Shown here piece by piece: positions 11,268 to 64,000 of a DNA stretch of 64,000 nt; the stretch's first letter is position 1, and every line of letters begins with the position of its first letter. The stretch comes from Bacteroidia bacterium. GTDB taxonomy: Bacteria; Bacteroidota; Bacteroidia; NS11-12g; UBA955. A program made the position numbers and the translations under genes. The DNA is taken from positions 149,801 to 213,800 of the forward strand of contig JALOAG010000005.1 of the NCBI GenBank assembly GCA_023228875.1, in the 5' to 3' direction. The notes under the pieces are model-generated. The model saw nothing but the letters and a program-made list of their open reading frames with translations. It made no database searches and was not told the DNA's origin.

Positions 11268-14141
11268 ATGAAGAAGATACTTTTATTGGCTGTTTTGATA
11301 CTTAACATCAATAAGGTATACTCTCAATTTGACACCCTTTTTTGGTTTGTTGCACCCGAGGTTCTGAATTATGGATATGATTTTGACAGACCTATTGTTT
11401 TCAGAATATCGACTGAGAATTTTGCAAGTACCGTTACTATTGATTTTCCCGCTAATCCTCTATTAACCCCTTATGTGATCAACATCGGTGCAAATAACAC
11501 TCTAACACAAGATGTTACGACTTATATAAACGATTTAGAAAATATCCAGCCCAATCAGGTATTAAACAAAGGAATAAGGATTAGAGCAACACAACCTGTG
11601 AGCGTCTACTATGAAGTAGTAAGTTCTATCCAATCTTTTTGCACATATTGTAGCCCAGATATTTTCACACTAAAAGGACAAAAGGCATTAGGTACTAAGT
11701 TTTATATCCCTTTTCAAACTGTATATCCTAACGGTACAAGCGGTTCTTATGCTGCTTTTGACATAGTAGCAACAGAAGACAATACATTTGTTACCATAAC
11801 ACCAAGTCAAAATATTGTGGGAGCAACAGCAGGAAACCCACTTACAGTTGTATTAAACAAGGGGCAAACATTTTCTGCAAGATCATCTTCTCAACAAGGC
11901 AATTTAAAACCGAGTGGTTCTAAGGTAATATCAAACAAACCGATTGCGATAACTATTAAAGACGATTTGGTTTTAATATCATCTTGTCAGGACTTGGCGG
12001 GCGACCAACTTGTTCCTGTTGATTATACTGGTACAGAATATATTGTGGTAAAAGGAAATCTAAATCCCTTTGACATAGTTTCAATTTTGGCAACGGAAGA
12101 CAATACAAATGTCGTCATTAACGGAACTTCGGTAGCAACTTTGAATGAGGGACAAACCTTTACATACAATCTCACTATCAACTGTATTTATATCCAAACA
12201 ACAAAAAAAACGTATGTAATTCATTTGACGGGAACGGGGTGTGAGGGTTCGTTAGCGGTTATTCCAGCTTTGTTCTTTTCATGTATCAAGCAATATGGTT
12301 TTACACGCCCTTCCGCTGATGATTTGTTTTTGTTTGTGATAGTAAAAAACGGTGGCGAGGGGAGTTTTGTGTTAAACGGTAACAGCACTCTGTTTATACC
12401 TGCTGATTTTTCAAATGTCCCCAATACAGGAGGACTTTACAAATACGCTAAAAAATCTTTCAATACTTCCACAGTACCTTCTAATGCAGGAAGTTTAATC
12501 AGAAATACAACACACCCTTTTCAGTTTGCATTACTAAATGGTAGAAATTCCGCAGGTGGTTCTCGCTATGCTTATTTCTCAAATTTTGAGGGCGAAAATA
12601 ATGAAGTAGATATTTCAGCCGAAAAAGCCGCACTTTGCGAGGGCGACACAATCCGTTTATATGGTCAAACTCTTGACCCCAATACCGTTAGTTGGACAGG
12701 TCCCAATGGCTTTACTTCCAATCAACTCAATATTGTTATTCCCAATGTATCGCCTGTTCATGCAGGCTACTATGTATTCACAACTTCCGCCCCTGCTTGC
12801 GGTTCCGGCAAAGATTCTGTTTATATAACTATCGCCTCCAAACCCATCAAACCCACAGTGAGTTCCAATCTCCCCGTTTGTTTGGGAGAAAAACTAATCT
12901 TAAAAATCACAAATAAACCCGGATTTGCTCATACTGTATCGTGGGATAAAGGTGCAAAAAGAGCTATTGGCATTGACGATTCATTGGTTTTTTATCCCAC
13001 ATTTCAGTCAGACGAAGCTGTGTATTCCGTACAATACCGTTCAGTCAGCAACGGTTGTTTGAGCGATACCGCACAAATCAAAGTGTCTCTGTTGCCCTTA
13101 CCCGACAAGCCCTCTATTACTTCTACTGCTACCAAGTATTGCGAATTTGACCATGTTGTCATCAGCAATAAAACGACTGTGCCACTAAGCACACAGTTTT
13201 CATGGAAAGGCGAACATGGGTTCTCGTCAAACCTTCGAAATATGATTGATTTAGACAGCATTAGAACCGGACAATCGGGTTGGTATAAACTCACCTTGAT
13301 TGACAGCAATGGATGCAAGAACGAGAGTGATTTGATTTATATTGACGTTATCCCTTATCCTGATTTGAGCAATGTATCCATTAGGTCAAATAGCCCTATT
13401 TGTTCTGGAGAGCCACTGAATCTCAAAGTACTTAATATAGATAGTAGTTTGGCAGTCAAATGGAAAGGTCCGTCAGGTTTTAGTTCAACATTGAAAGACA
13501 TACTAATTCCAAATACCACCACTGCCATGTCAGGGATATACAAACTAAGTGTGAGCCGTGATATTTGTGAATTTTCAGACACCTTGCAAACAGCTGTTTT
13601 AGTTAGACAAACACCCCGTGCGGATTTTGATTTTTTCCCTGCCATAGCGCGTACAGGACGCAATATTCACTTTATTAATAAGAGTTCTTTTGCTGCTGCT
13701 TATGAATGGAATTTTGGAGATTTCTCTGACCATTCGCCAGCCATTAACCCTGACCATATTTATGAACGTGAGGAAAGATTGTATATAACACTGATTGCAT
13801 ACAATATCGATTCTACTTGCATAGATTCTTCTGTCAAAAGACTGGATGTGTATAACTCCGAAGAAGGAGTGTATGTTCCAAGTGCTTTTTCTCCAAACAA
13901 TGACGGGAATAATGATATCTTTAAAGTAGTAGCAACAGGGGTAAAATTTGAAATTACATTAGAAGTTTATAATCGCTGGGGAGGTCTGATATTTAAAACG
14001 GAAGATGCTCGAAATATTGGTTGGGACGGAACCAACAGTGACATTCCGTGTCAGGAAGGGGTGTACATGTATGTTGTGCGATACATAAGCCTTGAAGATA
14101 AAGCTATTGTTACCTCCGGCACGGTTACTTTGTTGAGATAA
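11268..14141 (+). CDS. Secreted surface protein: IgGFc-binding-like N-terminus, Ig-like repeats, PKD domain and T9SS type B (gliding-motility-associated) C-terminal domain
   Basis: Signal peptide; LGTKFYIP, IVATEDNT.V.I and GDQLVPVDY.GTEYIV motifs; repeated C.G..I.L...W.GP.GF.S units; WNFGD...PDHIY; C-terminal YVPSAFSPNNDGNND.F...VYNRWGGLIF...GWDG...GVYMY...GTVTLLR. Confidence 0.88.
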   Translation: MKKILLLAVLILNINKVYSQFDTLFWFVAPEVLNYGYDFDRPIVFRISTENFASTVTIDFPANPLLTPYVINIGANNTLTQDVTTYINDLENIQPNQVLNKGIRIRATQPVSVYYEVVSSIQSFCTYCSPDIFTLKGQKALGTKFYIPFQTVYPNGTSGSYAAFDIVATEDNTFVTITPSQNIVGATAGNPLTVVLNKGQTFSARSSSQQGNLKPSGSKVISNKPIAITIKDDLVLISSCQDLAGDQLVPVDYTGTEYIVVKGNLNPFDIVSILATEDNTNVVINGTSVATLNEGQTFTYNLTINCIYIQTTKKTYVIHLTGTGCEGSLAVIPALFFSCIKQYGFTRPSADDLFLFVIVKNGGEGSFVLNGNSTLFIPADFSNVPNTGGLYKYAKKSFNTSTVPSNAGSLIRNTTHPFQFALLNGRNSAGGSRYAYFSNFEGENNEVDISAEKAALCEGDTIRLYGQTLDPNTVSWTGPNGFTSNQLNIVIPNVSPVHAGYYVFTTSAPACGSGKDSVYITIASKPIKPTVSSNLPVCLGEKLILKITNKPGFAHTVSWDKGAKRAIGIDDSLVFYPTFQSDEAVYSVQYRSVSNGCLSDTAQIKVSLLPLPDKPSITSTATKYCEFDHVVISNKTTVPLSTQFSWKGEHGFSSNLRNMIDLDSIRTGQSGWYKLTLIDSNGCKNESDLIYIDVIPYPDLSNVSIRSNSPICSGEPLNLKVLNIDSSLAVKWKGPSGFSSTLKDILIPNTTTAMSGIYKLSVSRDICEFSDTLQTAVLVRQTPRADFDFFPAIARTGRNIHFINKSSFAAAYEWNFGDFSDHSPAINPDHIYEREERLYITLIAYNIDSTCIDSSVKRLDVYNSEEGVYVPSAFSPNNDGNNDIFKVVATGVKFEITLEVYNRWGGLIFKTEDARNIGWDGTNSDIPCQEGVYMYVVRYISLEDKAIVTSGTVTLLR
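12620..13615 (+). repeat. About four degenerate Ig-like protein repeats (~85-90 aa) inside the T9SS protein; boundaries approximate
   Basis: Units begin LCEGDTIRL, VCLGEKLIL, YCEFDHVVI and ICSGEPLNL; three contain WTGPNGFTS, WKGEHGFSS or WKGPSGFSS. Confidence 0.6.
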
Positions 14142-61982: not shown

Positions 61983-62039
61983 ATATAAATGAGTTTCCGG
62001 CTAGCATAAAAGACTACATCACAACGCTCACAACTCCTA

Positions 62040-62161
62040 TATAAACCACCCAAAAAACCAACTTAAAAAGCATAGTTGAAAAAACAAGTGTGCTTAAAAC
62101 GCTTCTAATGAAGCCGTTTTTGATGTTTTTTTCTTTTTTTAGAGAGTTGTGCAACAGCTAC
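62040..62161 (+). mobile_element. Possible IS (IS1182-like) terminal remnant interrupting an attC-like site
   Basis: Ends in GAGTTGTGCAACAGCTAC (62144-62161), which from memory resembles IS1182-type termini. The open frame leading into it reads ...NLKSIVEKTSVLKTLLMKPFLMFFSFFRELCNSY. No transposase body and no convincing partner inverted repeat. Confidence 0.3.
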
Positions 62162-62178
62162 CCGTGTTAGCACTCGTT
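62162..62178 (-). repeat. Truncated attC-like site downstream of the cassette gene (core TGCTAAC plus start of left arm)
   Basis: Minus strand reads ACGAGTGCTAACACGGG, with the core 13 nt after the stop codon. The core is the exact complement of GTTAGCA upstream of the gene. Confidence 0.55.
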
Positions 62179-62185
62179 TTTCTTT

Positions 62186-63388
62186 TCAATTCGTCAATTT
62201 TGGTCTCTCCGTTTTTACTAAAAGTCCGTTTGCAATAAAACTATCTCCTGTTGTCAATTCTATTGTGTAAGTTAATTGTTCCTCTTCAATTGTCTCAATG
62301 GAAATTATGTTTATAAACTTATTTTCAGTCGGGATAAAAACTCTGTCACCGATTTTTAATTGAATTACTTCAGATGTTTGTTCGTAATTGTTGTTTGATT
62401 TAGTTGGGTTTACTGATGCCCAAATTTTGTCTTCTGTCCAAAATGGGTGGTCGTCAGTTGCAATTATTTCTCTGTCTGAAAAGCGTAGTTTTAAAAGATA
62501 GGTATGTCTTGCTATAGTAAGTTCTGAAACTTTCACTTTGTCCAAATTACCTGTCAAATTATTGTATGTAAGAACCCAATCTTGATTTGTTATTTCTTCT
62601 ATTTTCTTTGTTGAATTGTCAGCCATTGTGATTTGTGTCCCTGCTGCGAAACAATGAACGTCTAAGCCGTCAAAATTGATTTCACTAACAGCAACGTCAT
62701 CGTATTTTGTGCCTTTGTAAATTTCTAAAATCTCTAAGGTTAGAATTAAGTCCTTTGTGCTATCAGTAGATTGAATAGGATTGATTTTAAAAGACTGAGT
62801 GTTGTTAATGTCTTTAAGTTCAAGAATTGCTGTCGGTTTGCCGTTCACAATCATTTTGAACTTTGCTACTCGTGAATTTGCTTTCCACAAGTCAGTATTT
62901 TTAATGTACCCGTTCCAAATTATTATTTCATTTACCCTTGGTGCATATGGTTTGAAATGAAAATTTATTTTATTTCCGATTGAACCGTTTGAGTTGTCAG
63001 GAATCCACGCAGTAAAAAGGTCAAAGTCGTGAATGTTGTCTGGTAAGTATGTTATTTTTCCTTCGTCTTTTAAATACGAAGAAGAGGTTATTTTGTAAGG
63101 TCCACCGCCACAATACCAACTGCAACCAACACCTTGCGTCAATGGACCGTAACCGCTTTCTAAAGAGTCAATCATTTTTTTGTCTTGCTCTGAAAGTTTC
63201 TCATAGTCAATCTCACCCGAATTGATTTTTCCATATTGGTCAAGTGCTTTTTGCCAAATTATTTGGTCTGCTTTTTTAAAGTCATTAGAAGCGTTAACTG
63301 TCGCCTGAATAATCGGCAAATTTTGACCTGAAATCGAAAGTCCCAAAGTCAAAAAGAAAATTGTCAATATGTAAGCTGTCTTTGTCAT
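62186..63388 (-). CDS. Secreted protein: NADase-type glycan-binding/discoidin-like domain plus C-terminal Hint (intein-like) domain; candidate gene-cassette ORF
   Basis: Signal peptide; GCSWYCGGG; DFDLFTAW, IIIWNGY.K....W.AN.RV, EILEIYKG.KY.DVAVSEI; then H-C246FAAGTQITMAD, T311DDH314PF, LKIGDRV, TYTIEL...SFIANGLLVKTE. Confidence 0.8.
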   Translation of the reverse strand: MTKTAYILTIFFLTLGLSISGQNLPIIQATVNASNDFKKADQIIWQKALDQYGKINSGEIDYEKLSEQDKKMIDSLESGYGPLTQGVGCSWYCGGGPYKITSSSYLKDEGKITYLPDNIHDFDLFTAWIPDNSNGSIGNKINFHFKPYAPRVNEIIIWNGYIKNTDLWKANSRVAKFKMIVNGKPTAILELKDINNTQSFKINPIQSTDSTKDLILTLEILEIYKGTKYDDVAVSEINFDGLDVHCFAAGTQITMADNSTKKIEEITNQDWVLTYNNLTGNLDKVKVSELTIARHTYLLKLRFSDREIIATDDHPFWTEDKIWASVNPTKSNNNYEQTSEVIQLKIGDRVFIPTENKFINIISIETIEEEQLTYTIELTTGDSFIANGLLVKTERPKLTN

Positions 63389-63411: not shown

Positions 63412-63548
63412 TGCTAACGGTTGGCAGCTACAAGAAGTTGGCGATTTTCACCACAACTACCCGTGCGGAGAACCAAATATTCATTAACCACAAATATGTC
63501 TGCGGAACACTCAACCGCCAATTTATTGTAGGTGCTGCTATGCCCAGT
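63412..63548 (-). repeat. attC-like imperfect palindrome (~135 bp) between two cassette-like genes
   Basis: Arms CTACAAGAAGTTGGCG (63428-63443) and CGCCAATTTATTGTAG (63516-63531) pair at 14/16. On the minus strand the element starts GGCATAGC and ends GTTAGCA, 23 nt before the next ATG. Confidence 0.7.
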
Positions 63549-63594
63549 ACTTTGTCCTTTTTCATAAGTTTAATATCAAGCCAAACCACTTCCA

Positions 63595-64000
63595 TCAATT
63601 TTCCTTTCGAGGAATCAGTAATTTGCTTTTTTGATTGGAACATCCTGTTTCTTTTATAGTTTCGGAAGGAATTAATTTGATTGTTTTGTCAGCCGTATCT
63701 CCAAGTCTGAAATGATAATATGTGTCGCAATTTAAAGAATCTATCACTATCTTTATTTCCTTTCTGCCAATTTGTAATTTGCAGTACATAGCACCGGAAG
63801 TATGTGAGAAAGTGACCACACTATCAGTTTCCGATACCTTAAAGCTTCTAATTTTTTTTCCGTTAGATGACAGCCCTATTTCTACTTTAACCATTTGTCC
63901 TGCCAGTCTCCATTCTTTGATATTGATGCATGTCAACCCACAACCTGGTTGAGCCTTAAGCATAAGTTTTGGAATGCAGATTATCAGAATCAAAAGGACT
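63595..64000 (-). CDS. Hypothetical secreted protein (5' end outside window); candidate upstream cassette ORF
   Basis: The frame stays open to the window edge (..VLLILIICIPKLMLKAQPGCG..) with a signal-peptide-like stretch. The stop lies ~50 nt before the attC-like element. Confidence 0.55.
   Translation of the reverse strand, partial: VLLILIICIPKLMLKAQPGCGLTCINIKEWRLAGQMVKVEIGLSSNGKKIRSFKVSETDSVVTFSHTSGAMYCKLQIGRKEIKIVIDSLNCDTYYHFRLGDTADKTIKLIPSETIKETGCSNQKSKLLIPRKEN

Follow-up and report, generated by a model that had tools for sequence, protein, structure and literature searches.

Close to one end of a 64,000-nucleotide stretch of a Bacteroidia genome (hereafter the window; C66:149801–213800 of a 2.9-Mb assembly with 73 contigs and 36% G+C), a long hairpin lies between two co-directional genes and raises two linked questions: whether it is a recombination site comparable to the attC sites that stand at the 3' ends of integron cassettes, and whether a single base in its upstream core, which reads AGC in place of AAC, has put it out of action. 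An initial annotation, made from the letters of the DNA, had described it as an attC-like hairpin at 63412–63548 with a mutated core. We find that the hairpin is one of 61 sites of the same layout in this genome, whose arms covary, that its AGC is a rare and derived change, and that this change has a marked predicted effect on the folded structure. The explanation that we regard as probable is that it is an attC-like site of an integron-like gene-capture system, crippled by an A>G mutation and lying in the decaying end of an array.

The complete site, from R'' to R', occupies 63412–63547 on the minus strand (covariance model 98.7 bits, E = 3e-21) and is the penultimate site of its array, flanked by two minus-strand genes, a 137-aa gene that ends at 63595 and a 400-aa gene that starts at 63388. 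In minus-strand order it reads CTGGGCATAGC-A-GCACCTACAA-TAAA-TTGGCGGTT-[66 nt]-AATCGCCAA-CTTC-TTGTAGCTGC-CAACC-GTTAGCA. The R'' core CTGGGCATAGC (63547 to 63537) carries, opposite plus-strand C 63538, the G that replaces the family's invariant middle A of AAC. A one-base spacer, A (63536), separates this core from the L'' box GCACCTACAA (63535 to 63526), which pairs, with one C•C mismatch, with 63424–63433, the L' box TTGTAGCTGC (63433 to 63424) delimited by covariation analysis. Further inwards, a TAAA segment read from the sequence leads to the 5' arm TTGGCGGTT (63521 to 63513) of an inner helix (helix 3; 84% paired, five pairs with compensatory changes), whose partner AATCGCCAA (63446 to 63438), assigned by the same covariation analysis, is joined to L' by a CTTC segment, again read from the sequence. 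An unpaired 5-nt spacer, CAACC (63423 to 63419; family consensus AAAAC/AAACC), faces the 1-nt spacer of the opposite arm and precedes the R' core GTTAGCA (63418 to 63412), of which the reverse complement, TGCTAAC, closes the next cassette at 62166–62172. By analogy with integrons, the crossover would fall within R' at G|TT, after which TTAGCA... would open that next cassette.

Between the inner arms, the 66-nt variable terminal structure (63447–63512) consists of two tandem CCGCA-(8 nt)-TGTGG mini-hairpins and not simply of the AT-rich spacer that had been described there. The CAGCAC/GCAGCTAC flanks of the initial annotation, which were thought to leave unpaired bases, turn out to be the outer three pairs of the L box together with its C•C mismatch; an alternative pairing of GCAGC with GCTGC around an ACC bulge is possible solely through the A>G change. 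Two open reading frames over the hairpin, of 71 and 73 aa, one of which corresponds to a 55-aa gene call in an ENA contig, were treated as spurious.

Folded on its own, the site is not significantly different in energy from shuffled sequences (z = 0.65 and −1.17 for the two strands), so that the case for a function must rest on comparison. A loose palindrome expression run genome-wide gave about 1000 matches, mostly false; it was tightened and then given up for a covariance model built from 26 aligned sites of this genome, which recovered 61 attC-like sites of ~132 nt (an earlier targeted scan had found ~45 sites of the same layout). All share an AAC core, a 10-bp box, a 4×4 loop, a GGCGG helix, a long variable middle and a mirror image that ends in GTT, and the span between the start of L'' and the G of R' is a constant 117 nt across the family sites of the targeted scan; the length of about 135 bp, formerly placed near the long extreme of attC sites, is simply the norm of this family. 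The sites are clustered at C50:1–34000, on C2, C19, C25, C39, C67 and C68, and at the end of C66, the contig of the window, which extends 7.2 kb past it with a run of minus-strand genes and related elements in their gaps (locus L007). No Rfam family matched anywhere across the array, and exact-pattern scans of metagenomes returned no further copies of the site itself.

Pairing within the hairpin is borne out by the 26 aligned sites, in which 89.9% of cells are paired (69% in shuffles), the observed covariation is reached by none of 500 shuffles, and 16 pairs show changes on both sides, with G•T wobbles scored as standard pairs. In the L box, all ten pairs have compensatory changes and 92% of cells pair; when the partner columns are slid as a control, pairing drops to 32–41%. 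It is thus comparative evidence, and not folding energy, that establishes the reality of the hairpin, and the first annotation of an attC-like element at this position holds. L'' and L' therefore vary between sites while keeping their pairing, as integron attC boxes do. A second regularity ties the sites to the genes between them: there is one site at the 3' end of each cassette, and when consecutive sites are compared, at least 29 of 37 pairs have an R'' whose variable part reverse-complements the R' of the site before it (a match being 5/6 positions or better, which random pairs reach in 5.6%; three of the exceptions are parsing artefacts). In the site at 63412–63547, the 6-nt variable part of R'' matches the R' that opens the same cassette at 6/6 positions. 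When 60 related genomes were compared, homologs were found for the attC part only, the cassette genes having none there.

The sites contain no single-base bulges. In their place are an asymmetric 1×5 loop that separates the R box from the L box and, inside the L box, a conserved C•C or T•G position; these could take the part of the extrahelical bases that, with an unpaired central spacer, set strand choice in classical attC sites. In alignment A1, the column pairs 19/126 and 36/110 hold a top-strand T•G or G•T in 13 and 18 of the 26 sites, respectively; on the bottom strand they become C•A or A•C mismatches, which may likewise replace extrahelical bases.

The AGC in R'' is a real, single and derived A>G mutation. 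AAC stands in 25 of the 26 aligned sites of the genome, in 42 of 43 uninterrupted sites of the covariance model set and in 97 of 99 sites beside homologous recombinases in other Bacteroidota, so that only 3 of 142 intact sites deviate overall; AAC is the consensus of the genomic copies and no other copy reads AGC, in agreement with the original proposal of a core mutated from AAC. The nine closest homologous sites, which come from other genera within this family and order, read TAAC or CAAC without exception, and the nearest of them are up to 85% identical to the site, with the L boxes and the variable region in common. What makes the mutation unambiguous is that the start of the cassette preserves the original core sequence: the previous site opens the cassette with an R' of G|TTATGCCCA, and this cognate R', GTTATGCCCA, implies an R'' of TGGGCATAAC, which the observed TGGGCATAGC matches at 9/10 positions, the sole difference being the middle A>G. 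The outer cores of the family thus read AAC...GTT, and those of this one site AGC...GTT; it is a mutated member of the attC-like kind and not another kind of element. AGC is also present in the ENA metagenome contig L096, which is 100% identical over 3754 nt including the whole cassette, though this contig may derive from the same sample or reads and is not independent proof of the base call.

The two foreign sites that depart from AAC (L027 1884–2025 and 32–163) read TAAA and TTAC, and their own R' triplets, TTT and GTA, are complementary to the altered cores, which argues that selection maintains the pairing of the two cores. Within this genome, the R' triplet is changed at four other of the 61 sites, to GTG at C66:217232–217368, TTT at C39:85332–85471, GAT at C2:12609–12749 and GTA at C50:558675–558810; decay of the cores is scattered through the arrays and not peculiar to the site studied here.

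In integrons, the bottom strand of the attC site is the one that folds. For this site, the plus strand of the window corresponds to the bottom strand; its R' arm reads ...GCTAAC (63413–63418) and its R'' arm GCTATGCCCAG (63537–63547). Across the sites, bottom strands are better folders than top strands in 20 of 26 from this genome and in 53 of 68 from others, a bias that fits bottom-strand use, if weakly. The A>G change has different consequences on the two strands: on the bottom strand it turns the middle pair of the cleavage triplet, adjoining the presumed cut, into an A•C mismatch, whereas on the top strand it yields only a G•T wobble and creates a GCAGC that is able to pair out of register with the GCTGC of L'. 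The site is among the least stable of the 26 (−17.7 kcal/mol versus a mean of −24.1 kcal/mol, bottom strand); within the array, R-box pairing is limited to 4 bp, intact sites included. Folded in the array form with DNA parameters, these four R-box pairs of the bottom strand have probabilities of 0.62/0.64/0.62/0.54 with AAC and of 0.01/0/0/0.01 with AGC, which amounts to a loss of the predicted R-box pairing. In the excised-circle form, with the cognate 10-bp R box, the minimum free energy of the bottom strand is −27.8 kcal/mol with AAC versus −24.0 kcal/mol with AGC, and the triplet pair probabilities are 0.97/0.99/0.99 versus 0.37/0/0.75.

The closest precedent comes from class 1 integrons, where attCaadA7 with a non-complementary middle triplet position recombined with attI1 at a frequency of 6e-6 compared with 2.2e-3 for the wild type, a loss of ~370-fold, while complementary double changes at this position were well tolerated (Frumerie et al. 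2010, PMC2811028). Both that mutant and the present site are, once folded, mismatched at the middle of the cleavage triplet; in the present site the mismatch is a natural A•C from the non-cleaved arm acted on by a recombinase of another family, and not an engineered T•T on the cleaved arm acted on by IntI1 (PMC2811028). Most likely, the site at 63412–63547 would be strongly weakened by A>G; we infer the strand used, the position of the cut and the extent of the loss of activity. The earlier expectation that the change weakens recombination is thereby strengthened by the predicted loss of R-box pairing and by the class 1 precedent, and it keeps the standing of a prediction.

The cassette closed by this site is 1813 nt long, starts beyond the window at ~65230 and carries two genes of 355 and 137 aa, the 3' part of the second lying at 63595–64000 (minus strand, gene call). 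Only 17 nt separate the two genes (L007 9595–11093; the first with a CarboxypepD_reg domain), and no remnant of a site is seen in that gap. Downstream of the site, the last cassette of the array has a 400-aa gene (62186–63388, minus strand; NADase_transloc lectin-like domain and Hint domain) as its sole gene and is closed by the R'' TGCTAAC (62166–62172) of a last attC-like site, of which the remainder is missing. A truncated copy of a repeat with its target ACGG (62012–62165, minus strand; 98.7% identity, element positions 1–153) decapitates this last site and marks the end of the array, beyond which unrelated plus-strand genes begin. The site that opens the two-gene cassette is itself split by a complete copy of the same repeat, 474 nt long, so that both boundary sites of this cassette, and the outer boundary of the last cassette as well, are damaged. 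With one site split upstream and another truncated downstream, it is most likely that the last two cassettes can no longer move, and the two-gene cassette is probably stuck. The initial annotation had inferred a possible immobilisation of the upstream cassette from the mutated core; such immobilisation gains support, and the mutation together with the MITE-split upstream site is a likelier cause than the mutation alone.

The 474-nt repeat sits inside several attC-like sites and is a miniature inverted-repeat derivative (MITE), formed by internal deletion, of a 1.82-kb insertion sequence with a single full copy at C19:135619–137438. This full copy encodes a 506-aa DDE transposase of the IS1182 family (NF033551, 306 bits with a cut-off of 270), of which the MITEs retain codons 1–25 and 476–498, and both forms end in the 16-bp inverted repeats GTAGCTGTTGCACAAC and GTGCCTGTTGCACAAC, as expected of IS1182. 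Every copy of the IS or MITE lies in an attC-like site, 4 nt after the AAC of R'' and in one orientation, and 16–18 of the 61 sites (about a quarter) are split in this way; there are at least 10 complete copies of the MITE plus fragments at contig ends (among the copies, L007 11094–11855, 13402–14042 and 16784–17206). Two other readings of the repeat, as a non-coding cassette or as an insertion made by the integrase, were rejected because of the full IS1182 copy, the fixed insertion point and the 16-bp inverted repeats. Target duplications match in only some copies, which probably results from recombination between copies and suggests cassette loss along with it. In the literature searched, we found no report that links IS1182 to attC targeting, an absence that is not proof of novelty.

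The two ends of the MITE have features of their own. Its right end (L007 ~13480–13520 and equivalents, minus strand) carries TTTG-(21 nt)-TATATTTG pointing into the next cassette, which matches the Bacteroidetes −33/−7 promoter consensus, and its left end a GCTTC-ATTA-GAAGC hairpin with T-runs on both sides that resembles a bidirectional terminator; from these motifs, the MITE may insulate and re-promote cassettes. The loop at 63457–63464 is ACGGGTAG, at a place where all nine close homologs have TCAACATT; as the loop of the second mini-hairpin it reads CGGGTAGT in place of TCAACATT, with the stems unaltered, and the altered stretch now reads ACGG|GTAG, exactly as at a junction 1.2 kb away between target and IS left end. 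This loop swap may be a templated patch.

The array itself begins on another contig, beside a recombinase. The best candidate in the genome is a 365-aa protein (C50:34488–35579, plus strand, identified by profile matches), which is divergent from the minus-strand array that runs from ~34300 to the start of C50; ~200 nt from its gene lies an attI-like sequence, GTTATAGCCA (region C50:34290–34330), which matches the R'' of the first cassette, TGGCTATAAC. The genome thus has a divergent recombinase with an attI that fits the first cassette. The protein consists of Phage_int_SAM_4 and Phage_integrase domains with an unassigned N-terminal extension of ~90 residues and scores 214 bits with the archaeal XerA profile and 202 bits with that of the integron integrases (TIGR02249), below the cut-off of 265. 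Positions 177–240 of the TIGR02249 model are unmatched, and the alignment to VchIntIA (PDB 2a3v) skips ~33 residues, 214–246, which constitute the IntI-specific domain; no protein of this genome (100% complete) reaches the integron-integrase threshold, and the IntI domain is missing from the candidate. The arrangement is widespread: the recombinase has 308 relatives in Flavobacteriales, Chitinophagales, Cytophagales and Bacteroidales-type genomes, and attC-like sites flank these relatives at dozens of loci, mostly in divergent arrangement.

Together, these elements suggest how the site would have operated. It closes the two-gene cassette at the distal end of an array whose start is on another contig, where an Xer-like tyrosine recombinase is transcribed divergently next to an attI-like site. 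One strand, probably the bottom strand, would fold into the long hairpin, in which R'' would be paired to R' and L'' to L'; recombinase subunits would bind the two boxes, cut within the AAC/GTT triplet and exchange the strand with attI or another attC-like site. The A>G mutation would weaken the site by putting an A•C at the middle pair of the triplet, although the tolerance of a core mismatch may differ for a recombinase that has no IntI-specific domain to read attC structure.

Most likely, the site works like the attC sites of sedentary chromosomal integrons, such as the ~125-nt VCR of the Vibrio cholerae superintegron. Like these, it is an imperfect palindrome at the 3' end of a mostly promoterless cassette; its kind has outer cores of the form RYYYAAC...GTTRRRY, in which only AAC/GTT is conserved, L boxes that covary and a long variable middle, with length and sequence homogeneous within the array; and R'' mirrors the start of its own cassette in an array divergent from a tyrosine recombinase with attI. 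Unlike VCR-type sites, it has no bulged extrahelical bases, but the 1×5 asymmetric R/L loop and the conserved mismatch or wobble of the L box, and the Bacteroidota sites add the 4×4 loop and a second helix, GGCGG. The partner recombinase, without the IntI-specific domain, also differs from those of VCR-type systems, as does the host phylum, in which integrons are reported to be nearly absent, with only In0 elements and a single complete integron, that of Salinibacter ruber, in the Bacteroidetes (IntegronFinder 2.0 preprint). Since the structural and positional features agree while the IntI domain and the bulged bases are absent, we regard the site as a variant of the attC kind and not as a plain member. 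Our literature search found no paper that describes this Bacteroidota system, which again does not prove it new.

In its decay, the site resembles degenerate attC sites and CALINs, clusters of attC without an integrase, being mutated, at an array end far from the integrase and flanked by sites that an IS has disrupted; unlike CALINs, its array does have a recombinase, on C50, and the damage is one identifiable base change that can be dated against the R' of the cassette's own start. The targeting of the sites by the IS and its MITE has parallels in the IS1111-attC group of the IS110 family and in the group IIC-attC introns, which likewise insert only in attC-like sites, at a fixed position and in one orientation; in contrast to these, the present element is a member of the IS1182 family with terminal inverted repeats of 16 bp, and it has spawned a MITE found in about a quarter of the sites.

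The weightiest alternative accepts the site as a genuine attC-like site and takes AGC as functionally neutral, so that the cassette would still be mobile through it. The top strand would show nothing worse than a G•T wobble; class 1 rules may not hold for a recombinase that differs from canonical IntI; and in class 1, joint changes of both arms are tolerated best at the middle of the triplet (PMC2811028). Against this, the class 1 variant left non-complementary lost ~370-fold (PMC2811028), and among the three intact sites of 142 that depart from AAC, the two foreign ones are compensated in R', which argues that pairing is under selection. In most sites the bottom strand folds better than the top, and there the change is an A•C that abolishes the predicted R-box pairing; the upstream site of the cassette is interrupted in any event. 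We consider neutrality unlikely, at about one chance in four, and prefer the reading of a crippled site.

Two other explanations are far less probable. A draft assembly of 73 contigs could contain a sequencing or assembly error, with AAC as the true reading; the ENA metagenome contig, identical across the whole cassette, includes the AGC, and the site bears a second private difference, the 8-nt loop swap, and we regard such an error as highly improbable. Slightly less credence still is due to a reading of the hairpin as REP-like or as a terminator of transcription, without a role in recombination. Its position between co-directional genes, the TTTT run that follows R' and a weak terminator-like pattern at 63530–63552 on the plus strand would suit a terminator, but that pattern, the match that overlaps the site, is antisense to the cassette genes; minimal short-stem matches number 5 against 1.7 ± 1.3 expected in shuffles, and terminator and promoter scans gave nothing persuasive. 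A terminator unrelated to gene boundaries, which the initial annotation had held against its own proposal, does not agree with the strict relation to boundaries seen here, nor would a terminator or REP have cores that vary cassette by cassette in register with the neighbouring site, or arrays that adjoin a tyrosine recombinase and an attI-like site in many genomes; REP-like elements also gain nothing from Rfam, where no match was found.

Taken alone, the finding is small: one decayed site at an old array end, the expected fate of cassettes far from the integrase. The surrounding system matters more, with 61 sites, a non-IntI recombinase conserved in hundreds of genomes and an IS that targets the sites; if active, it would be a platform for gene capture in a major phylum, both environmental and host-associated, and standard detection criteria, which look for the IntI-specific integrase domain, would miss it. 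Still more tentatively, with a confidence that falls a little short of even, we propose that the site is a fossil marker in an undescribed class of integrons with a wide distribution in Bacteroidota, characterised by an Xer-like recombinase, 132-nt hairpins with asymmetric loops and strand-specific wobbles or mismatches, and an attC-specific IS1182 element with a promoter-delivering MITE, in which the A>G acts strand-specifically. If this is true, the change would be harmless on the top strand, where it gives G•T, and would disrupt the bottom strand, the one recombined, where it gives A•C; it would then constitute a natural test of strand choice in the Bacteroidota system. AGC and AAC versions of the site are a ready pair of substrates for asking which strand this Bacteroidota recombinase uses and how it recognises its sites.

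The cassette genes are mostly without known function; the others include the CarboxypepD_reg protein and the lectin and Hint protein at the array end, and a LinB-like nucleotidyltransferase in a cassette beyond the window (L007 15447–16247; PF21418, E = 6e-24). Judging from this domain match, the product of the latter cassette could possibly be a lincosamide-modifying enzyme.
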